Positions 4,149 to 57,700 of a DNA stretch of 64,000 bases are shown here, one piece after another. The first letter of the stretch is position 1. Each line of letters opens with the position of its first letter. Under the pieces are notes generated by a model that saw only the letters and a program-made list of their open reading frames with translations, ran no database searches and was not told the origin of the DNA. Origin of the DNA: Candidatus Bathyarchaeota archaeon (GTDB lineage: Archaea > Thermoproteota > Bathyarchaeia > Bathyarchaeales > Bathycorpusculaceae); the NCBI GenBank assembly GCA_963767735.1, contig CAVYES010000006.1:480001-544000 (forward strand), read 5' to 3'. Made by a program: the position numbers and the translations under genes.

Positions 4149-7100
4149 TAGCGTGGTGCCTCCGGTGGAAACTTTGCTGTGACAACGTTTGAGACTCCGT
4201 TGCGTTCGTAGACTCCGTAGACTTTTTGTGCTTTGTTAACCATTTCAGGACGCAGGCTGATCACTATGAACTGCATTTTTGCTGCTTCTTCGAGGAGTAC
4301 TTCGGCAAGTTTGGTTGTGTGGTAAGCATCTAAGTGTGCATCAACTTCGTCTAGGATGAAGAAGGATGCTGGCGTGAATTCTTTTAGTGAGAATATGAAG
4401 CTGACTGCTGAAACTGAACGTTCACCGCCGCTTGCTCCGCTTACAACGATTGAGGGCTTGTTTGGGAACTGTACAATCATGTCTATGCCGCCGGTGAAAG
4501 GTTCTTCGGGGTTTTCAAGTTTAAGCGTGGCTTCTCCGCCGCCGGTGAGTTTGGAGAAGTATTGTTTGAGGCTGGTGTTGATTTTTTCGAAGGCGCTCAT
4601 GAAGACTTTGCGTTTTTTTGCTTCGATTTCATCCATGAACTGTACGATGGCTTGTTTTTCTTTTTCTAACTCGTTTAAGCGTACTGATAATTCTTTATAG
4701 CGGGACAGTTGGTCGGAATAGTGTGAAAGCGCAAGTTGGTTTATGGCGCCTATTCTTTCCATTTCAAACTGCATCATGCGGATAGTTATTTCGGCTTCCT
4801 CAACCTGTTTCTGATTTGTTTCTAAAGGTTGTTCGTAGCCGAATTGGCGAAGTTGCGATTGGAGTTGCTGGAGACGAAGCTGGCTAGTTTCCATGTTTAG
4901 CTGCAGCTGATTTAGCAGCTTATCTGCCTGTTCATATTCAAAATCAAGCGACCGCAGTTCGGAGTCAATGGCATCTATTTGTGATGTGAATTTTTTGGAT
5001 TCTTCCCGTGCAGAAAAAACAGCTTTTGAAAGCTCAACACGGCTTTTCTCGAATTCTTCGATTCCTTTCTTTAATGACTCGCGTTCTTGAAGTGCGTCTG
5101 CAACTTCTTTCTCAAGCTTTCTTTGTTGCTGTTCAACTTTGACTATCTGTATTTTGATGTTCTTGTATCCATTCCTTAGAACTCTGTCGAATTGTGACTG
5201 ATATGTTGAAATTTCCGTTTGAGTGGACCCTGAGTTTTGGCGGAGCTTGTTTAGTTCTTCTCCCAGTTTTTCCCGTTGCACTTCGAGCTCTTGAATGTGC
5301 GACACATCAGTTTTCAGTCTTAAAGTGGCGATGTCTGCTTGCAATTTTTGGTCTGTTCTCCTGATAGAATTTCGCTCATTCATGTACATGCTCATGCGGC
5401 CTTTGTATGCTGCTGCTTCACGTTCAAGTTTGCCGCCGTATTTTTCCGTATGACGAATGTTGAATTGTGTCCTTTTAACGCTCCGTTTGATGCGCACCAG
5501 TTCCCTGTCCAACGTGGCGATAGATTCTTCAAGCCGTGTCATTTCGATTTTGCTTCGGCTGATTTCTTCTTCGATGCCCGTAATGTCTGTTCCTCGTTGA
5601 GTGAGATGCGTCTGGAGAGCTTTTACTGCTTCATCTAAACTTTTTAATGCATTTTCGCTTGGAATAATTGTTGAGAAATCTATTGGGGCACGGTAATAGC
5701 CGCTTTCAAAAGCGCCGGGTTCGTACAAGTCTCCGTTCACTGTGACTGCTCGGTAGCCTTCATTTGAAAGCGCAAAAGCTACTCTATCGTTAGATACTAC
5801 CACTGTGTCTCCGAAAACATAGTTTACGGCCAGTTCATAGTTGCTGTCAAATTTCATGAAGCTTGAAAGGGCACCTACTACGCCGTCTCGGCTGGGTGTC
5901 CCCTTGTTTTTAACGTTGATAGCTCCCTGCAACGGAATAATTTTTATTCTGCCCAGTTTCATTCGTCTTAGCGTTTCAGTACATGTGAAGGCTGAATCGA
6001 TATTTGCCACCACTAAAGCGTCAAGCCAACCTGTCGCCGCTGCTTCGATAGCTTTCTTATAGTTTTTGTCTATTTTTATCAGGTTCCGTAGCCTGCCGTG
6101 GATTCCAGTTATCGCGCCAACGTTGCCCATTTCTTCTATGCTTCTTAGGGCTTTTTCTTCAGCAGCTATAGTTGCCGCAAGGTCTCTTTGAGTAGCAAAC
6201 TCTATCACGGCGTCTTTGGCGGAGCTGGCTATTTTTTCTGCGTCAGTGATTTCTTTTTCAACGGTTTCTTTTTGGAGTTTTTTACGCTCGATTGTGTGTT
6301 CAAAGTTTTTAAGCGAGTTTTTCTGGTCCTTCTGAACCTGCTCCAGCTCGCCTAATGATTTTTCGATTTCAGTTAGGCTTGTTTGGAATTTTTCTTTTCT
6401 CACGTTTAAGTTTTTGAGTCTTCCACTGCATAGGCGAAGGGCTGATTTGTCTTTGGTGTATTCTGAGCGTAAATACGCCAGCCGTTTAACGTGGTTTTCG
6501 ATTTCTGATTGCTTTACCCGTATTTGCTGGTTGTTATCGCCAAGCCCTTCCCAAAGTTGCGCGGTTTCTTTTGCAGCTGTATCATGCTCCATTTCTTTTT
6601 GAGTTATTTGGTCTTTGGTTTTCACGTATTCACTGCGGAAGGCTCGGATTTTCAGTCGGTTTTCCCGTATCTCCTTCCTAATATTTTCTTGTTGAAGAAG
6701 GTTGTTTTCTCCTACGCGTTTTAAGCTTTCAAGGCTGCCTTGTCCAGAATTAATTTTGCTGTTTAACTCGGTAAGTTTAGATTTTAATTCACCAATCGTT
6801 ATTTGAACCTTAAGAACTTCTGAACCGCCTTGTTCAAGGTTTTCGCCGCTGAGTTTTCGCCAATCAGACTCGATTCCATGGCGTTTAGACCTGCGCAGGT
6901 CACGTTGTTCTTTTAATTTGTCAACTCTGACTTTGACTTTTTCAGTTTGGCTGGTTGCTTCATTTATTCTCGCGTTTAATTGCGTTATGTCGCTTGATAG
7001 TTTGATTGCTTGGAACTTTTTCGTCTCACTCTGAATGAAGTTGTAACGTAAAAGTTGGTTTCGTTCGCGTTCTAAATCGTCGAGGCGTTTTTGCACTTCA

Positions 7101-39252: not shown

Positions 39253-42241
39253 TCATTGTACACTTTGGTGGTTTTCTTGTTCGTTCTTGTTCTGTTTTGG
39301 AATAGCTATGGTGAATTTTGCACCTTGGCCCGGCTCGCCCTCTTCTGCTATTACCCAACCGTAGATACCCATCATTTTCTTTATGAAGAACAGCCCTAAG
39401 CCAGTATTGCTCCCGGTGCTAAAACCCTCAGTAAAAAGCTTTGGTTTGTTCTCTGCCGGAATGCCGACTCCATCATCCTCATAGACCAAGATCAACCCAC
39501 CCGACTTTTCCCGTTCGCAATGCACTTTTATGGTTGTGGCTTTTTCGCCGTATTTTCTTGTGTTATCGATGAAATTGTAGAACATTTGTCTAAGGAACGA
39601 ATCCGCCAGAACTCGCACGCCGTGGCAGTTGTTAACCACCTTGATTGTTAAGCCTGAGAAAAGAGCTACAGCCTCATCCACAGACTTTCCAACATCAACG
39701 TAACTTAACTCTTCAACACCCAGTTGCTCGTACATTTTGGCGAACTCAAAAATCTTTACCGAATCCTTAACTGCCAACTCAATCTTGCTCAATCCCTCAG
39801 CAATGTCTGCCTGATCCGCATGTTTCTTCTTGAGCAAATACGCGTAACCATTCGCCGCTGAAAGCTTGTTTCGGACATCATGTCTAGTTAGGCTGCCAAC
39901 CACACGCAACTTCTCATTCATCAACTCAATTCTAACGTTGTTTTCTTTCAGTTTCTTCTCTGCCTCCTTTCTTTCAGTGACATCTCGCTACACTGAGGAT
40001 TAGTTTTTTGCCTCCTAACTCAATTAGGCGTACATGGAGTTCTACCGGCAACAAGGATTTGGCCTTGCACACCTCCACAGACTCGAAAACTGCACTACCA
40101 TTTCTAAGTAACTCGCTAATTCTGGACTTAACTAATTTTGCAGATTCCGGGGTATCTAAATCTTGAATTTTCATTTTTGCCATTTCTTCTTTGGTGTAGC
40201 CGCGCAGCTTGTAAGCTGCCTCATTAAATTTAACAATGTTTCCATCCATATCATGCACAAAAATCGAGTCAGAAGCTAAATCAAAAATGCTGGCAGCTAT
40301 TTTCAGTTCCACTTCAGCTTTCTTGCGTTCCGTAATATCTATGACCAAACCTCTAACCCCTGTTACTCTGTTTTCAGAAAAGATAGGGCTGATCCTAACA
40401 AGCGAAGAATATGTGGCACCCTTTTTTGTAAAAAGAGTATACTCATGAGTGCCGATGTCTTCTCCTGTCAGTATCTTCTTCAGGTTTTCACTCGCTATTT
40501 CTAACTCTTCAGGAACAACAAAAGACAACATATTCAAACCCTTTTCGAACTCTTCTCGCGTAAAGCCTGTTATCTCAAAACCTTGTCTATTCAAGAATGT
40601 TATCCTACCAGTCAAGTCTGCCTCAAAAACAATCTCTGGCAAAAAATTGGCGAGTTCCCTGTACCTCACCTCACTTTTTCTCATTATCTCTTCGGCTTTC
40701 TTGAGTTCAGAGATATCGGTTACTATTCCCATAATAGCCCTATCGCCGTTGTATTCTATGAGTGCTGTGTTGATTATTGCATTAATTCTCTTGCCATCTC
40801 GCGTGATGAGCACGTATTCATATGGAGGAACGATTTCGCCTCTCATATGCTTTGAATAAGCTAACTTTAATGTTTCAACATATTCGGGGGGATTGAGAGA
40901 AAGAAAATTAAAGTTAGGAGAATAAAAGTCCTCTCTACTGTATCCCGTTATTTCTTCGCTTTTCTTGTTAGCGTAAACTACTCTGCCTTGTTTGTTTATG
41001 AAGATTATATTAGGTGATTCCTCTGCAAGTTTTTTGAATTTTTCCTCGCTTTCTTTTAATGACTCTTCAATTTTCTTGCGTTCAGTGATGTCTTCGCAGA
41101 ATGCAACTAGTTTTCCATCTGGGAGTCTTTTGGAGTTCAAACTGACTTCGATTATTGTACCGTCTCTTTTTCTAAGTCTCATTTCTCCAGCAAAATGTCC
41201 CTTTTCCTTAAGTTTGTTAAACCTGCTTCGGCTATAATGGTCTTCTTTGGGAACAGCTTGATCAGTGGTCATATTCAATAATTCTTCCCTTGAATAACCG
41301 AGCATAGTGCAGGCAGCATCATTTACATACTCATATTTTGCCTCATTATCCGCAACAAAAACAGAAACAGGAGAACTCTCCAAATAAGCCCTAAGAGTCT
41401 TCTCAGAAAGAGAAAGAGCTAACTCAGCGTTTTTGCGTTCAGTAATGTCAATTATTGATCCTTCCACAATTTCTTCTTCAGTATAAATCTTGGATGACAG
41501 TAAGCAGTTCTTGATCTCACCCTGCTTGCTAACCAGCTTTATTTCGACATCAACCAATTGCCCCATAGCTTGAAGAACTTTTACCAACTTTTCTCGCTCC
41601 GCAGCGTCTTTATAGTAAAACGTTGCCGGAGTACCCTTCATTTCTTCACGACTGTAACCGAGAATCTGAAGCAGCTTTTCATTAATATCTAAAATTTCCG
41701 AACTATGCAACCTAGTTCTAAACATTCCCACTTCAGCGGAGTTGAAAAGTCTGAGGTATTTTGCCTCTGACTCTGCAAGACGCCTTATTGAGTTCTTTCG
41801 TTCTGTTGCTTTTGCAATTGTATGGGATAGTTCAGCGTAAACTGTTTCTGGGTCACCCTGCTTGTTAATGTACGCGTCAGCGCCGAGGTTTAGAGCTTTT
41901 ATGGCTACTTCTTCTCTGCCCTTTCCAGTAAACAAGATAAAAGGAATTTCATTAGTTTGTGCACGCAGCTCTTTTAGAAACTGTAAGCCGTCCTTTTGAG
42001 GCATCTCATAATCAGAAATCACAACATCATAGTTGCCATTTGGTATTTTCTTGAAGGCTTCATCCACGCAACAAGCGTGGTCAATTTCGAAGTTGCCCAT
42101 ATCCATCAGAAGCAGCTTTGAGATTTCGAGAACGGTTGGATCATCATCTACATGCAAAATATGAATTATGTTCTTTTCGTTTGAAGGCTTTAAATTGGCC
42201 CCTTCGACGGTGACTCTGCACTCTTGTTCATACGTTTGCAA
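39253..42241 (-). CDS. REC-(PAS)n-histidine kinase hybrid, 2-bp frameshift near 39985
   Basis: ILHVDDD..SDYEMP receiver, five PAS repeats ending DITERK-like, TRHDVRNKL H-box, YEDDGVG and TGLGL. Confidence 0.9.
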
Positions 42242-42676: not shown

Positions 42677-43081
42677 CTACTTTATCTTTTCAATAGTTAC
42701 TTTGTCATCGTACTCTTGGAATGAAATTTTGAATAACTTAAAAAAATCGTATCTTCCTAATATATAGGGCACCTCATTGATCAAAGCCACTGCGATTTTC
42801 ACTTTTACCACGTTATCTTCAAGTCTAAAGCTAACATCCTGTAATGACAGTGGGACTATTGCTTCTCCTATGCCTCTGATTTGGCCTAAACAAGAGGAAA
42901 GGTCTAAGCCTAAAAGTGCCCCGAAATTCCTTGGAACAAGCGATATGTCTGCTCCCGAATCAATATACATAATCACTGGAAACCAATCACAATTTTCAGT
43001 TCCGATCTCCAACTGAGCAACAGGTCTGAGAATGTCTCCTAGAAGCCCTGATTTCTCTTTTCTGTAGACAAATTCAACCAA
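42677..43081 (-). CDS. Retropepsin-like aspartyl protease
   Basis: RPVA, IDSGAD, ILGRYDFF. Confidence 0.85.
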   Translation of the reverse strand: MVEFVYRKEKSGLLGDILRPVAQLEIGTENCDWFPVIMYIDSGADISLVPRNFGALLGLDLSSCLGQIRGIGEAIVPLSLQDVSFRLEDNVVKVKIAVALINEVPYILGRYDFFKLFKISFQEYDDKVTIEKIK

Positions 43082-43283
43082 TCAAGAGCACCAATGTATC
43101 TTCTCTCGGCACGAAAGCTAGAACAGGACGTTTCCCTGGACATTTCTTTTTGGCGCTTTCCCAAACTTCCTTTGGGTCGTATCCACTCGCCACCACTTTG
43201 TCTTCGACTATAGCAATATGTTTTCCACTGTACTTCTTGTTGATTTTATCTGCATTTGTCAGGTAGAAACTGAGTTCTTTCAT
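43074..43283 (-). CDS. DUF5678-like small protein, partner of the aspartyl protease
   Basis: KYSGKHIAIVEDKVVASG..P..P pattern; overlaps the protease start. Confidence 0.8.
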   Translation of the reverse strand: MKELSFYLTNADKINKKYSGKHIAIVEDKVVASGYDPKEVWESAKKKCPGKRPVLAFVPREDTLVLLIG

Positions 43284-43725: not shown

Positions 43726-44219
43726 ATGGTTAGAGTGAGCTAGAACAGACTTGCCTCCAAACCAGGTTATGATTCCCTATCGTTAACTTACTTGCTTTTA
43801 GGTAAAAGAGGCTTTAGGCAAGTTCGCCGAGTTGCCGACCTGAACAGGTTCAAATCCACAATATATATGCAACGCTTTTTCAAAAATCAGCATTTCTTTT
43901 GCTTAACCCGGGTCCGAAAGGACTTGCGCTTCCAAAAGCACATTTACACTGTATCTTTTCTTTTTTTGATAAGTTAATTTATTTTTTTGTCATAAATTTT
44001 TCATAGACTAGTTTAGTCTAGCATTCCGCTGTCGACATTCACACTACAATTTTTGCGTTTTAGCGCTCCCTCTTTTATTGTTCAGTCAGGTTTTTACGCA
44101 TAATGGTTGTTACGCACAAGTTGTTAATACTGAATTTAGTCTTCCTGTAAAGCGGATTAAGTATGAGGCGTTCCAAAATAAAAAGTGGTGGATGTTAAGG
44201 CATAAGTTGGTGTACTTTC

Positions 44220-44588
44220 ATGGAGCTAATCCAGACAGTTAAAGACTTCGATAATCTTTTAGTTCAGGTTACCGAAGAAACAATCAAATACTGTTTAGGA
44301 GACGCAAATGCCACTATTATTTGGAATTATCTTGAAAAACGAAACTGCCCGATAACCGAAGTTCCAATCAGACCTGAAATTTTTTCGGAGGAACTTAGAA
44401 ATATAATGGGTTTTGGGAGACGACAGATTCTTGGGGCGGCGGCAATACTTGAGGAAACAATACTTGAAATATTTTATAAAAAGCTGGGAATCAACTTTGA
44501 ATGTGAAAAACCAATCAATTTTTCATACCAAGTTAGAAAATTACGTAATCAATACAAAACCGGAGACATACGGAGGTGGGAATTATGA
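44220..44588 (+). CDS. Small helical signalling-associated protein (DUF3227/NitrOD5-like)
   Basis: EETIKYCLG..IIWNYLEK..PEIFSEELRNIMG..ILEETI pattern; first gene of the regulator operon. Confidence 0.6.
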   Translation: MELIQTVKDFDNLLVQVTEETIKYCLGDANATIIWNYLEKRNCPITEVPIRPEIFSEELRNIMGFGRRQILGAAAILEETILEIFYKKLGINFECEKPINFSYQVRKLRNQYKTGDIRRWEL

Positions 44589-45037
44589 CAATTGAAAAAT
44601 CCCGAATCCTAATTGTAGATGATGACAATGAGATAACCGAGTCTCTAAGTAGAGTGTTGGAATCTGAAGGGTACCGAACCGATGTAGCTCACACCGTAAA
44701 AGAGGCGATTGAAAAGTCTTACGAAAACGATTACAATTTGACAATTCTAGACATCAAGCTCCCGGATGGGGAAGGCACATGCATTCTAAAGTTGCTGGAG
44801 GAGATTTCGCCGAAGACGATGAAGATCATGCTAACTGGACACCCGATATTAGAAAACGCCGTTAATTCTTTGAATTATGGTGCAAATGCCTACATGATTA
44901 AGCCCGTAGATTTAGATTCCCTTTTAAAGACAATAAAAGACAAAATTGAAGAGCAGAGAGCTGCTGAAACAGCTACTGAAGAAAGTATCGCCATCTTTTT
45001 GCAAACCAGAACAAAAAAACTATTAACGATGAAATAG
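44585..45037 (+). CDS. Response regulator receiver protein
   Basis: ILIVDDD, LDIKLPDGEG, LTGH, KP. Confidence 0.92.
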   Translation: MTIEKSRILIVDDDNEITESLSRVLESEGYRTDVAHTVKEAIEKSYENDYNLTILDIKLPDGEGTCILKLLEEISPKTMKIMLTGHPILENAVNSLNYGANAYMIKPVDLDSLLKTIKDKIEEQRAAETATEESIAIFLQTRTKKLLTMK

Positions 45038-45071
45038 GCTATCCGCCAGAGATTTGGAGTTGCATAAGAAA

Positions 45072-45656
45072 ATGACTCAAGTAATTGGAAAAGAGGATAA
45101 ACCAACCAGAATATTAGTTGAAGAGGACATAAACATGAGAGCAACAGTAGATGCTGTCCTCAAGAAGAATGGGTACTGCATCAATCTTGCTGCTATCCAA
45201 AGCGAAACAGCAACGCGAACCGTTGATGTCCCATTTAATTCGGCTGTAAAAGATGATCGGTTTCCAGACGTGGAACGCATAACGCACTCGCTTCTAAAAG
45301 TTCAAGAAATCACGGAGGCTACTCACTTGCTTTGGCCAAACGAAAAAACCGCAACAAAAATAACCACTGATACCGTCGAAATCATAAATCAAGCTTGCAA
45401 GAAAAATTTCTCATTTTGCAACGGAAAAAGCTTAAAATGCCTAATGGGCGGATTATTCTATCTTCTAGGCTTCAGGTATGATGATCCAAAGAAACAAATA
45501 GAAATAGCATTCGTTCTTCAAATAACGGATGTCTCAGTAAGATCATCTTACAAAAGGTGGTTTAGAGAGTTTCCAGAGTTGTTTCAAAGCGCAATAACAA
45601 AGCTTCCGGAACAAGAGTTTCGTTGTCGTCGTTATCCTATTTCGCGTTCGCAATAG
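45072..45656 (+). CDS. Degenerate receiver-like N-terminus fused to a TFB C-terminal cyclin/HTH-like domain
   Basis: RILVEED..LKKNGY..KDDRFPD; GKSLKCLMGGLFYLL..QIEIAFVLQITDVSVRSSYKRW resembles TFB repeat 2. Confidence 0.6.
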   Translation: MTQVIGKEDKPTRILVEEDINMRATVDAVLKKNGYCINLAAIQSETATRTVDVPFNSAVKDDRFPDVERITHSLLKVQEITEATHLLWPNEKTATKITTDTVEIINQACKKNFSFCNGKSLKCLMGGLFYLLGFRYDDPKKQIEIAFVLQITDVSVRSSYKRWFREFPELFQSAITKLPEQEFRCRRYPISRSQ

Positions 45657-45875
45657 CGGACTTCGCATAATGGACGGCTGGAAAAACGAAGTTAGTAAAT
45701 TAAATAACCAAGGGCCGATTCAAGACTTTTGATTAAATTTTGCACAAGCTACAGACGACGCGTTATTAAGTTTGTCCAATCAAACCGTGGCGGGTCATTT
45801 CAAGAAAGTGGCTCCTGGAATGGGTTTCATCCTTGAGTTTAGTAACTTTGGCAACTTAAAAAATATGGGAAAAAC

Positions 45876-48554
45876 TTATTGTGCAATTTGGTAGTTTTCT
45901 TTTCCATTATTGTTTAATTTTGGAATGATTATTGTGAATTTTGCTCCTTTACCCGGTGTACCGTTCTCTTGAATTTGCCAGCCGTAAACATCCATCATTT
46001 TTTTAGTCAAAAATAGCCCAAAGCCTGTGCTGCCTCCAGTGCTGAAACCCCCCGAGAAAAGACGCGGCTTATTCTCAAAAGGCACGCCTACTCCATCATC
46101 CTCATAAACCAACTTCAGGCTTTCTTGATCACCCCTTTCAAAGTACACTCTGATAGTTGTGGTTTTTTCACCGTATTTTCTTGTATTATCAATAAAATTA
46201 TAGAACATCTGCCTAAGAAAAGAATCCGCAAGCAATGTTAATCCGTGACATTCATTAATCATCTTTGGGACGGGCGCTGAAAAAAGAGCAGTTGCTTCCT
46301 TTAGTTTCTGTTCTGCATCAATGTAAGTTATTTCTTCCTCACCCATTTGTTCGTACATTTTGGCGAAATCGAAAATCCTAACAGTCTCTTTAATAGCGTT
46401 CTCTATCTTGCCTAAATCATCAACAATATCAGCCTGGTCACTATGCTTTTTCTTAAGCAAATAAGCATAACCATTTATCCCTGAAAGCTTGTTGCGGACG
46501 TCGTGCCTAGTTAAACTTCCAACCACTCGAAGTTTTTCATTTAATAGCCCGATTTTATCCAAACTATTCGACAACGATTCTAAAGAAAACGTCAAGTCAG
46601 CCTCTGTATTTTTTTGGTTGATAATGTCTGTAGCAATACTGGCCGCCCCAACAAATCCCCCGTCTTCATTGAAAATAGGTGTTCGATTTAAAATTACTGG
46701 CACCACTGACCCGTCTATGTTCTTATGTGAAATTTCAGTTGACCAGCTTTCACCCGCCCTTAACCTTTTAGTGGCTCCCTCTGCTTCTTCTGGTGAAGTA
46801 CCAAATAGATCAGTAACTTCGCGACCCAGTGCTTGTTCTTCTGACCAACCATAGAGTTTTTCTGCTGCTTTATTCCAAAAGCGAATTGTTCTGTTACTAT
46901 CCGCCATTATGACAGCTTGCCCAACGTGATTTAGCAAATCAGCCTGAAATTTAACGGATTCTTCAGTTTTCTTGCGTTCAGTAATGTCTTCGAATACGGC
47001 TGCAAAAAAACCTTTTCTCGGTGAATAAACTGAGACATTCAGCCAAATATTTAGGGGTTTGAAGAAAATTTCAAACTTTTCTTTTTGACCGGTGACTGCA
47101 ACTCGTCCGTAAATTTCAAAAAGCTCTGGAGTAGTCTCTTTAATTCCTGGTATTGCAAGAGTTACTTTTTTTCCGATAACTTTGTCTTTTTTCAAACCTG
47201 TTATTTGTTCAAATGCCTCATTAATTTGAAGATATACAAAATCATCAGGCTTTCCAGATGCGTCAAATATCATTTGGCAAAATGCAAAACCATCGATCAT
47301 GTTCGAGAAAAGAGAACTATAGTCTTCTTCACTTTTTCTTAACGTTCCCTCAAATTTCTTGAGTTCAGTAATGTCGCGTACAGTAGCCTGCAACACTTCT
47401 CGACCTTTCAGCGGCATTCTTGTTAAAAGTACGTCTGCAGGAAAAGTTGCACCATCCACTCGCTTGTGAATCCAGAAAAAGTGATCGGTACCTGCCTGAA
47501 AACCCTTTTTGATGTGACTCATGGCGGCGTCCATGGATGGTGTGCCGTCTGGTTGAGTTGGAGGAGACAAATCTGATGGATGAAACTTTGTAAACTCCTG
47601 CAATGACTTGCAGCCAAACAATCCGAGCGTAGCTTTGTTGCAGTCAAAAAAACCCTTCTCGTCAAGCAACATTAAAGCATCCATTGATGACTCGAACGTT
47701 GTTTGGTATTTCTCTTCGCTCTCCTTTAGCTTCTCTTCAGCTTCCTTGCGTTCACTGATGTCGATGATTGTTCCTTCTATTATTCCTTGTTCAGGGTAGA
47801 GCTTGAGTGAGGTTAGACAATTTCTGATTCCGTGATGTTTATGTAGCATTTTGCATTCGAAATCTTTAACATACCCGTTGGCTTGGAGCAGGCGAACCAT
47901 CTCTTGTCGCTTAAGTGGGTCAGCCCAAAAACTCGTCGAATGCTTTCCCCGCATTTCTTCACGGGTAAGACCAAAAATACTTAGATATTTCTCGTTGAAG
48001 TCAAGAATTTCAGACCCATCCAGCTTAGTTCTGAACATTCCCACTTCGGAGTTATTAAAAATATTCTGGTACTTTAACTCTTTATCAGTTAGCTCTCGTT
48101 TGGATTTCCAGTGTTCCACGCCTAGTTTCATGCCGTGGACAAGTTCGCCATAGACAGTCTCGGGATTGCCTTGCTTGTTGAAGTAACCGTCTGCGCCAAG
48201 GTTTAGTGCTTTTATGGCTACTTCTTCTCTTCCTTTTCCGGTGAACAAGATGAAAGGGATGTTATTGTTCTGTTTACGCAACTCAGTTAGGAACTCGAGG
48301 CCGTTTTTTTGGGGCATTTCATAATCAGAAATGACAACATCATATTGCCCCGTTGACAGTTTCTTGAGGGCTTCATCTACGCAACAAGCGTGGTCAATTT
48401 CGAAGTTGCCCATATCCATTAGGATTAGCTTTGAGATTTCGAGAATAGTTGGGTCATCGTCAACGTGCAAAATATGAATTATGTTCTTTTCGTTTGAAGG
48501 CTTTAAATTGGCCCCTTCGACGGTGACTCTGCACTCTTGTTCATACGTTTGCAA
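45876..48554 (-). CDS. REC-(PAS)4-histidine kinase hybrid
   Basis: Receiver, four PAS repeats, TRHDVRNKL H-box, HATPase boxes. Confidence 0.93.
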   Translation of the reverse strand: MQTYEQECRVTVEGANLKPSNEKNIIHILHVDDDPTILEISKLILMDMGNFEIDHACCVDEALKKLSTGQYDVVISDYEMPQKNGLEFLTELRKQNNNIPFILFTGKGREEVAIKALNLGADGYFNKQGNPETVYGELVHGMKLGVEHWKSKRELTDKELKYQNIFNNSEVGMFRTKLDGSEILDFNEKYLSIFGLTREEMRGKHSTSFWADPLKRQEMVRLLQANGYVKDFECKMLHKHHGIRNCLTSLKLYPEQGIIEGTIIDISERKEAEEKLKESEEKYQTTFESSMDALMLLDEKGFFDCNKATLGLFGCKSLQEFTKFHPSDLSPPTQPDGTPSMDAAMSHIKKGFQAGTDHFFWIHKRVDGATFPADVLLTRMPLKGREVLQATVRDITELKKFEGTLRKSEEDYSSLFSNMIDGFAFCQMIFDASGKPDDFVYLQINEAFEQITGLKKDKVIGKKVTLAIPGIKETTPELFEIYGRVAVTGQKEKFEIFFKPLNIWLNVSVYSPRKGFFAAVFEDITERKKTEESVKFQADLLNHVGQAVIMADSNRTIRFWNKAAEKLYGWSEEQALGREVTDLFGTSPEEAEGATKRLRAGESWSTEISHKNIDGSVVPVILNRTPIFNEDGGFVGAASIATDIINQKNTEADLTFSLESLSNSLDKIGLLNEKLRVVGSLTRHDVRNKLSGINGYAYLLKKKHSDQADIVDDLGKIENAIKETVRIFDFAKMYEQMGEEEITYIDAEQKLKEATALFSAPVPKMINECHGLTLLADSFLRQMFYNFIDNTRKYGEKTTTIRVYFERGDQESLKLVYEDDGVGVPFENKPRLFSGGFSTGGSTGFGLFLTKKMMDVYGWQIQENGTPGKGAKFTIIIPKLNNNGKENYQIAQ

Positions 48555-52612: not shown

Positions 52613-53590
52613 ATGAGTATAACCCAAATGAGTACAAGTAATGAAGTCCCAAAAATTAATCAGCGCTTAGTTGATAAGTGCCCTGAATGTGCAAGCAAAA
52701 ATCTAGTTCATGATTATGACTCGGGCGAAACCATCTGTGGTGACTGCGGTCTAGTTTTGTATGAACAAATGATGGATAAAGGGCCTGAGTGGCGTGCGTT
52801 TACCCAAGAGGAGAAAGCGTCAAGAAGCCGCGTCGGCATGCCCACATCTTATTCAATTCATGATAAAGGCTTATCCACAGCCATCAGCCAAGTGGACCGA
52901 GATGCCTTCGGAAGAAAACTCCCATTATCCACAAGGCTGCAAATGTGGCGTCTTAGGAAATGGCAAATACGCAGCCGAGTACATTCATCCGTCGACCGAA
53001 ACCTCGCTCAAGCAATGGCTGAACTTGAACGTTTGTCGAGCAAAGTTTCTATTTCAGCGCCAATAAAAGAAAAAGCTGCCGTCGCTTACAGAAAAGCACT
53101 CGACAAAGGCTTAGTTCGAGGAAGATCAATCAACGCCATCGCCGCAGCTTCACTTTATGCTGCTTGCCGAAAAAGCGGATCACCAAGAAGCCTTCGCGAA
53201 ATCGCTGAAGCTAGTCTTGTTGCTAAGAAAGATGTTGCAAGATGCTATAGACTTCTGCTGCAAGAGTTAGATTTTCACATGCCAACTTCTGACCCATTGA
53301 CGTATGTATCAAAAATTGCAGAAAAAACTGGAATATCAGGCAAAACACAGGGCGCCGCCATCGCAATACTAAGGATGGCTAGACAAAAACGAGTTTCAGC
53401 AGGAAAAGACCCTATGGGTTTAGCTGCTGCCGCACTCTATATCGCCTGTTTACAGAACGTCGAAAAAGAAACACAAAAAGACATTGCAGAAGCAGCTGGA
53501 GTCACAGAAGTTACAGTTAGAAACAGATACAAGGACCTAATGAAGCGACTGAACCTCGAAACCCCTGATACGCTAAAAATTCGCTTATAG
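52613..53590 (+). CDS. tfb: Transcription initiation factor IIB (TFB paralog)
   Basis: CPEC..CGDCG Zn ribbon, GPEWRAF B-reader, two cyclin repeats, VTEVTVRNRY. Confidence 0.97.
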   Translation: MSITQMSTSNEVPKINQRLVDKCPECASKNLVHDYDSGETICGDCGLVLYEQMMDKGPEWRAFTQEEKASRSRVGMPTSYSIHDKGLSTAISQVDRDAFGRKLPLSTRLQMWRLRKWQIRSRVHSSVDRNLAQAMAELERLSSKVSISAPIKEKAAVAYRKALDKGLVRGRSINAIAAASLYAACRKSGSPRSLREIAEASLVAKKDVARCYRLLLQELDFHMPTSDPLTYVSKIAEKTGISGKTQGAAIAILRMARQKRVSAGKDPMGLAAAALYIACLQNVEKETQKDIAEAAGVTEVTVRNRYKDLMKRLNLETPDTLKIRL

Positions 53591-57304: not shown

Positions 57305-57700
57305 ATGGCTGAGAATAAGCGTAGCATACTGATAATTGATGATAACTCTTCTATTCTGAGAACTATGACTCGACTCTTGAGTAGAGAAAGTTACGATGTT
57401 TATACTGCGCAAACGGGCAAAGAGGCTTCAGAAAAACTGTCGACTAAAAAGTTTGATGCAGCTTTGATTGATGTTGGTTTAGGCGAAACATTGGGGACCG
57501 ATCTGTTGCCTCTGATGAATAAAGTAGCCCCCAACATGTTGAAGATTGTATTCACAGGTACGCCTATGTCAAAGGGTACGCTCGACGAGGTAAATAGAGG
57601 AGCCGACGTATTTCTGCTTAAGCCTGTTAAACCAGACACCCTCATTGGAATTCTCGAAGAAAAACTTAAAGGGAAAACAAGTACCGTTTCAACACACTGA
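57305..57700 (+). CDS. Stand-alone response regulator
   Basis: ILIIDDN, LIDVGL, FTG, KPV. Confidence 0.9.
   Translation: MAENKRSILIIDDNSSILRTMTRLLSRESYDVYTAQTGKEASEKLSTKKFDAALIDVGLGETLGTDLLPLMNKVAPNMLKIVFTGTPMSKGTLDEVNRGADVFLLKPVKPDTLIGILEEKLKGKTSTVSTH

Follow-up and report, generated by a model that had tools for sequence, protein, structure and literature searches.

In archaeal transcription initiation, repeat 2 of the general factor TFB inserts its helix-turn-helix (HTH) into the major groove at the upstream B recognition element, BREup (PMC4581349, in part). The outputs of archaeal two-component systems, in turn, are described as mostly stand-alone receivers with the classic bacterial DNA-binding output domains missing, and Galperin et al. 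2018 propose contact of the receiver with neighbouring HTH proteins as the prevailing, although undemonstrated, archaeal mode (PMC5847659, in part). Here, we describe a locus in which a TFB-derived repeat lies within a two-component operon. The DNA analyzed, referred to as the window, comprises 64,000 nt of Candidatus Bathyarchaeota archaeon (assembly GCA_963767735.1, contig CAVYES010000006.1, positions 480,001-544,000, forward strand), whose genome is available in 10 contigs (3.04 Mb, completeness 94.9%). Positions 44220-45656 hold three open reading frames (ORFs) in the same direction: ORF1 (44220-44588, +; 122 amino acids, aa), ORF2 (44576-45037, +; 153 aa) and ORF3 (45054-45656, +; 200 aa), the last being a chimera of half a receiver and one TFB repeat. 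In our assessment, ORF3 is probably a small regulator whose working part is this single repeat-2-type cyclin/HTH domain and which works together with ORF1 and ORF2, and it may link archaeal signalling to transcription.

The two halves of ORF3

Residues 77-185 of ORF3 (45282-45608, +) make up a single cyclin-like repeat with an HTH of the TFB repeat-2 type, followed by a family-specific C-terminal helix. A first-pass annotation of the locus had noticed by eye that the C-terminus resembles repeat 2 of the full TFB encoded in the window (52613-53590), and the likeness held at every level of comparison. In BLASTP, residues 97-173 aligned with residues 237-313 of that TFB (E 4e-4). The Pfam TFIIB repeat PF00382 matched ORF3 alone in one stretch, residues 102-168, without reaching the cut-off (E 1e-3), and 31 of the 33 family members matched it with a best E of 2.1e-7. 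Profiles were built from a shallow family alignment of 33 rows (A1) and a deep one of 149 rows (A2). Against repeat 2 of P. woesei TFB (PDB 1ais_B), they reached E-values of 6.7e-8 and 7.8e-14, respectively, and the A2 profile also matched human TFIIB (E 7.5e-11). Repeat 2 was preferred in all cases (E 8.9e-12 vs 130 for repeat 1). Within the source genome, the core profile matched only ORF3 and three TFB genes. ORF3 itself matched the A2-built core profile with an E of 7.2e-45, and the match to the family, which we refer to as mini-TFB, extends over the whole core (profile positions 78-185) including the motifs G-K-S...G-G-L-F-Y-L-L-G and W-L-x-x-F-P-x-L-F, the latter forming the C-terminal helix specific to this family.

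The structure predictions agreed with the profiles. A first model of ORF3 based on the 33-row alignment was poor, with a predicted local distance difference test score (pLDDT) of 54.5, and was superseded by a model from the 149-row alignment, in which residues 72-185 form a single five-helix repeat at a pLDDT of ~97. This model superposes on TFB repeat 2 (1d3u_B, 1205-1300) with a VIA Z of 13.7 and a root-mean-square deviation of 1.7 Å over 96 residues, so that the cyclin fold on which the first-pass annotation hinged is present in the predicted structure. The top 30 rows of the Foldseek search proposed there were TFB, TFIIB or Brf chains throughout. All Foldseek E-values were above 1e-3 because the disordered receiver half dilutes the score; VIA then gave clear Z values. 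By sequence and predicted structure, the C-terminal domain of ORF3 is a close relative of the BRE-reading TFB repeat.

The resemblance is greatest in the HTH itself (H4-H5, residues 146-172; 45489-45569, +), where TDVSVRSSYK of ORF3 stands against TEVTVRNRYK of TFB. Here, 12 of 27 positions are identical to P. woesei TFB, compared with ~22% overall, and the recognition helix TDVSVRSSYKRW aligns with TEVTVRNRYKEL of TFB and VTIRQSYR of human TFIIB. Over the 149 rows, the best conserved of these positions are W169 (92%), R163 (83%), Y166 (75%) and K/R167 (73%), followed by T158 (62%) and V160 (57%). Thus, ORF3 has the repeat-2 fold of TFB and TFIIB together with its recognition helix. The rest of a general factor is missing: the zinc ribbon PF08271 had no match in ORF3 at E ≤ 1 (3.3e-17 for the window TFB in parallel), and instead of a second cyclin repeat in tandem, the N-terminal 76 residues match receivers.

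This N-terminal part is a relic of receiver residues 1-63, from β1 to the LPD loop after β3, and occupies residues 14-76 (45093-45281, +). A profile of ORF3 residues 12-95 searched against the 8,653 ORFs of the source genome returned six non-self matches (E 5e-10, 1e-8, 2e-5, 5e-4, 6e-4 and 0.018), all of which are receiver ORFs according to an independent REC profile. A whole-genome profile search agreed, and a REC hidden Markov model built for this study matched residues 21-87 (E 3e-6). Pfam PF00072 was nearly blind to the relic and found it in one of the 33 family members (E 0.03). The degenerate receiver suggested earlier for this end of the protein is therefore of receiver origin, but only its β1-α1-β2-α2-β3 part is present. 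All relic alignments are confined to these elements and the LPD loop and end at residue 76; the region of the β4 Thr/Ser and the β5 Lys is absent, and the TFB-like core begins at residue 77. Consequently, ORF3 contains neither a complete (βα)5 receiver of ~110 residues nor a pseudo-receiver, i.e., a whole fold minus the catalytic residues, but half a domain only.

The remaining half is poorly maintained. The position equivalent to the phospho-accepting Asp (residue 67) is D in the window copy, and among the 33 members it is D in 16, E in 8, N in 6 and another residue in 3; the acidic-pair positions 23-25 vary as well, and neither feature is conserved in the family. Mean pairwise identity is 42.6% for the relic and 72.8% for the core, with ratios of nonsynonymous to synonymous substitution rates (dN/dS) of 0.42-1.14 and 0.20-0.57, respectively. 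The relic was modelled at a pLDDT of 54-62 without sheet or strands and is predicted to be disordered. A role of its α1 as a kinase-docking remnant was considered and dropped, as conservation there was no higher than in the rest of the relic (0.62 vs 0.47-0.74). The receiver half of ORF3 is eroding and lacks what phosphorylation chemistry needs. With half a domain, an unconserved phospho-Asp, near-neutral evolution and disorder, ORF3 cannot itself be the phospho-accepting output of the relay, and the phosphorelay reading of the first-pass annotation is supported only in part. The candidate for that role is the intact stand-alone receiver ORF2.

Relic and core share one open frame in 11 of 11 DNA loci. 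No start codon is conserved where the core begins (26 of 33 members have Ile at position 73), and therefore the relic must be translated to make the core. In a stop-codon simulation with 0.12-0.4 substitutions per site, each lineage had a probability of 0.19-0.51 of encountering no stop in the relic, so that the open frame is only moderate evidence of constraint.

Operon, family and partner domain

ORF2 is a CheY-like response regulator, an intact receiver that stands alone and ends in a short helical tail. It matches PF00072 over residues 11-120 (E 1.4e-23), its alignment shows the DDD, D, T and K motifs, and its dN/dS is 0.15-0.27; the earlier statement that the third ORF follows an intact receiver gene was correct. 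The genes are tightly packed, with an overlap of 13 nt between ORF1 and ORF2 and an ORF3 start 16 nt past ORF2. The start codon of ORF3 is TTG, and its first ATG is codon 7.

This arrangement is not confined to the window. ORF3 has 32 homologs at 45-76% identity, and relic and core occur in one ORF in ten other DNA loci (L001-L003 and L014-L020), which amount to eight distinct loci since L002 and L014 are almost identical to each other, as are L017 and L018. In all nine loci that extend far enough, the gene just before the ORF3 homolog encodes a receiver; ORF1 is present farther upstream in 7 of 7, and a kinase follows downstream in 6 of 6, on the same strand in L001, L002 and L003 and on the opposite strand in L015, L016 and L017; in L020, the start of a hybrid kinase is visible. 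All relic-bearing loci are from Bathyarchaeia genomes or metagenomes, and the seven related genome loci are assigned to Bathyarchaeia or Bathyarchaeota. Hence, one subclade, the window included, carries the relic at the 5' end of the gene in an operon of ORF1, intact receiver and ORF3 beside a PAS kinase. The fusion is thus no one-off decayed chimera but has conserved homologs in a conserved operon. The search for combined REC and TFIIB-repeat architectures, which had been recommended along with the first-pass annotation, was successful in part: half-receiver fusions were found in the ten other loci, but no protein with an intact REC and a TFB repeat. The full receiver PF00072 was detected in 0 of 23 longer family members, and no longer fused form (351-2000 aa) scored among 989 candidates.

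Beyond this subclade, a search of 1.84 billion representatives yielded 234 clusters at E ≤ 1e-3, of which 123 also passed E ≤ 1e-10; most are 110-170 aa long and match the core (profile positions 78-185) only. Mini-TFB is therefore a narrow family of Bathyarchaeia, whose members of ~120-170 aa stand alone and have a single repeat. On viral contigs, scanned with A1, none of the 75 pattern matches encodes a relative. Three core-only mini-TFB genes, at 4420-4893 (-) in L004, 23-481 (-) in L006 and 5361-5957 (-) in L007, are arranged head-to-head with a gene for an AsnC-type winged helix-turn-helix (wHTH) protein (PF13404, E 8e-7 to 1e-9).

ORF1 belongs to an unnamed family and is a conserved partner of the TFB-like domain, one that the first-pass annotation had overlooked. 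It had no Pfam or NCBIfam match, and its family profile found nothing below an E of 0.15 in the PDB. It has 68 homologs (51-100% identity), and its dN/dS is 0.14-0.32. Of 28 core-only loci, 13 have an ORF1-like gene next to the mini-TFB gene, and an ORF1-like domain is fused after the TFB-like core in P0044, P0050, P0052, P0077 and P0092 and before it in P0053, P0056 and P0059. The mini-TFB family therefore repeatedly adjoins this small domain or is fused to it in either order. The source genome encodes six ORF1-like paralogs, three of which, ORF1 included, are in two-component operons. The two other operons (C3:68682-73256 and C7:192985-196581) consist of an ORF1-like gene, a long PAS kinase and a 150-aa receiver and contain no TFB-like gene. 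Their receivers are the best matches of the ORF3 relic. In this genome, ORF1-like proteins therefore seem to be regular third members of two-component operons, even where a TFB-like gene is lacking.

A complex of the ORF3 core with ORF1 was predicted with a score of 0.60, compared with 0.05 for the best control. Of 157 solved complexes, 116 reach the mark applied to such scores, as do 2 of 215 mismatched pairs, and scores of 0.60 or less were found for only 18 of the 157 solved complexes and for both mismatches that passed. Contacts agreed to at least 91% between runs, and the partner was modelled at a pLDDT of at least 80. At 45604-45801 (+), overlapping the end of ORF3 and extending downstream, lies what is left of a second ORF1-like gene, decayed and interrupted by a stop codon. 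It was found by tblastn with the 170-aa ORF1-like protein of L002 (E 4.6e-4, 29% identity over 66 aa). This second gene is intact and separate in L002/L014 and fused to the C-terminus of the ORF3 homolog in L001. NitrOD5 (PF11537) was tried as a name for ORF1 and rejected, as ORF1 had no match at E ≤ 1; of 16 ORF1-like proteins, two matched at E ~0.1, and in the source genome there was no match at E ≤ 1. In the Atlas, the named clusters nearest to ORF1 (0.82 and 0.83) bear NitrOD5 in 12% and 24% of their members, which is a lead only.

With regards to the surroundings, the operon is preceded by a conserved 5' leader (44060-44219, +), which could be aligned between the window, L002, L003, L017/L018 and L019 over ~130 columns at p-distances of 0.06-0.21; among the loci compared, the sequence farther upstream gave no alignment. 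The leader holds a 15-nt direct repeat with a period of 16 nt, GGTTTTTACGCATAA (44089-44103) and GGTTGTTACGCACAA (44105-44119), a candidate operator/promoter region that could serve the operon's own regulator. Downstream, a hybrid PAS histidine kinase (45876-48554, -; Pfam: REC, four PAS, HisKA, HATPase) is convergent with the operon. Upstream lies a second hybrid kinase (39253-42241, -). The operon is therefore flanked by two hybrid kinases as the first-pass annotation stated, but the upstream one is split into a part with REC and five PAS domains (39974-42241) and, after a gap of 49 nt, a separate 223-aa HisKA/HATPase part (39253-39924, HATPase_c). Over its first ~65 residues, it is nearly identical to the downstream kinase, which points to a recent duplication plus split, or to a broken gene. 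Just upstream of the operon, two overlapping ORFs (42677-43283, -) encode a DUF5678 protein (69 aa, E 7e-18) and a 134-aa product for which Pfam gave no match; the pair may be a small two-gene module, e.g., of a toxin-antitoxin-like kind. Finally, the REC profile of this study detected a further stand-alone receiver ORF in the window at 57305-57700 (+; C6:537305-537700 in genome coordinates).

Mechanism and competing explanations

If ORF3 acts as a regulator together with ORF1 and ORF2, the mini-TFB would bind DNA by its HTH, as TFB repeat 2 does in the major groove upstream of TATA, and it would do so in complex with ORF1. The signal of the kinase would arrive by protein contact with phosphorylated ORF2 and not by way of ORF3's own relic, which may be a gene-fusion leftover whose frame persists only because the start codon used to translate the core lies ahead of it. 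Without zinc ribbon, B-reader and repeat 1, a mini-TFB would be unable to recruit RNA polymerase and would therefore be a repressor, a competitor or a specific regulator, not an initiation factor. A more elaborate version, in which the TFB-repeat copy is held by the ORF1-like adaptor, freed or engaged by the phosphorylated receiver and then competes with full TFB for the BRE of selected promoters or titrates a TFB-binding partner, appears doubtful to us.

Several observations weigh against the regulator as outlined. We infer DNA binding by ORF3 from residue conservation alone, and the predicted complex with ORF1 supports their partnership only weakly. The core evolves rather fast, with a dN/dS of up to 0.57 and 60-68% amino-acid identity at a dS of 0.24-0.8. 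The kinase downstream is convergent here and thus not co-transcribed with the operon, and the locus shows decay on both sides, with the stop-bearing ORF1-like remnant downstream and the split kinase upstream. Among core-only loci, a receiver is a neighbour in only 2 of 28, and an AsnC-type wHTH gene stands beside three of the four from genomes; coupling to two-component systems is therefore not general to the mini-TFB family. Moreover, members of the family are rare: among 301 genomes sampled from the class, 4 encode one, all within the source organism's family, and among 401 sampled from the phylum, 3 do, all within its genus, the source genome being counted in both cases.

The alternative that survives best specifies the mode of action as mimicry of TFB: the mini-TFB would take the BRE beside TBP-TATA and thereby block the pre-initiation complex at chosen promoters, under the control of ORF2 and ORF1. 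Its recognition helix keeps the TFB signature, with the 12 identical HTH positions mentioned above, but differs at two positions (N to S and R to S). The best matches in sequence and structure fall on repeat 2, the BREup reader (PMC4581349, in part); however, repeat 1, which touches the TBP stirrup jointly with repeat 2 according to the same source, is absent, as are the zinc ribbon and the B-reader, and the C-terminal helix with FPxLF has been added. Three full TFBs in the genome would be available as competitors, yet no BRE-like target was identified, the sole conserved candidate site being the direct repeat in the operon's own leader. We regard TFB mimicry as possible, though rather unlikely, and place both remaining alternatives below it.

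One of these is that ORF3 is a decaying chimera, functionless in this genome and left over from a rearranged two-component locus heading for loss. The near-neutral relic, the fragmentary ORF1-like gene with its stop, the split kinase nearby, the raised dN/dS of the core and the patchy distribution among relatives would all fit. However, none of the 11 DNA loci has lost the open frame that joins both halves in one ORF, purifying selection acts on the core, which retains high pairwise identity, the family-conserved residues are all present in a confidently predicted fold, and ORF1 and ORF2 are well conserved. In addition, two stretches, 45161-45349 and 45519-45761, are covered by RNA-library contigs of a single study, the first across the junction of relic and core with one difference. 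This is a weak hint of expression, as such libraries can contain DNA; the cover of the operon is partial, and the uncovered part proves nothing. Altogether, decay is an improbable explanation. Least likely is a protein-only decoy in the manner of the PhyR partner switch, in which the TFB-like domain would imitate TFB repeat 2 and so bind a TFB-binding protein such as an ORF1-like one instead of DNA under receiver control: the close and recurrent association with the ORF1-like domain, by linkage as well as by fusion, the weakly supportive complex prediction and the ORF1-like genes heading two other kinase-receiver operons that have no TFB-like gene would agree with it, but of the TFB-like features of the family, the helix that reads DNA is conserved best, and a pure decoy would not need it.

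Comparison with known systems

ORF3 and repeat 2 of TFB/TFIIB (PDB 1AIS, 1D3U, 1C9B) have in common a cyclin fold of five helices, with the HTH at its C-terminal end, as well as the recognition motif T-[ED]-V-[TS]-[IV]-R-x-x-Y-[KR]. Unlike these factors, ORF3 has one repeat and no zinc ribbon, B-reader/linker or repeat 1, is identical to TFB at ~24% of positions, and adds the helix W-L-x-x-F-P-x-L-F. The TFB cyclin/HTH repeat thus exists as a free-standing, diversified protein family, which bears on the idea of initiation factors built from single repeats (PMC4581349, in part). In a literature search judged by titles and abstracts, no description of a single-repeat TFB family or of a receiver-TFB fusion was found.

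The TFB3 of Sulfolobus reportedly has the N-terminal part with the zinc ribbon but no cyclin core, and ORF3, in which only the last cyclin/HTH repeat is kept, would be its converse. What both would have in common is the use of a shortened paralog of a general factor as a condition-specific rather than basal regulator (PMC6101594, in part). With respect to archaeal stand-alone receivers (PMC5847659, in part), the locus is similar in that the ORF2 receiver lies beside a predicted DNA-binding protein, with the output presumed to proceed by protein-protein contact. It differs from the cases treated there in that the neighbour is a TFB-derived repeat and not a protein of the ArsR, wHTH or HalX type; within the text and the searched supplementary files (file 4 excluded) of that source, TFIIB, cyclin and COG1405 are not mentioned. 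Pseudo-receivers (PMC12632262, in part) likewise consist of receiver-derived sequence minus the phosphorylation chemistry, but they are described as whole folds, whereas ORF3 retains receiver residues 1-63, which are predicted to be unfolded.

A parallel by concept is the bacterial PhyR, where a copy of the DNA-reading module of a general initiation factor is also joined to receiver-derived sequence in a signalling locus. PhyR combines a complete, phosphorylatable receiver with a sigma-like domain that binds the anti-sigma factor. In ORF3, the domain order is reversed and a partner switch of this kind would be hypothetical; in the Foldseek search, PhyR chains appeared as weak rows only (41 and 50). 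The route from archaeal two-component systems to gene expression is largely open, and the locus provides a concrete, testable trio beside a PAS kinase, namely ORF2 as the receiver, ORF1 as a small partner protein and, in ORF3, a DNA-reading module derived from the basal factor TFB. If the doubtful scheme of an adaptor-held TFB mimic were true, the relic would mark an ancestral direct fusion of REC and TFB repeat, and with the trio, archaea would have their own counterpart to the PhyR/anti-sigma partner switch of bacteria.

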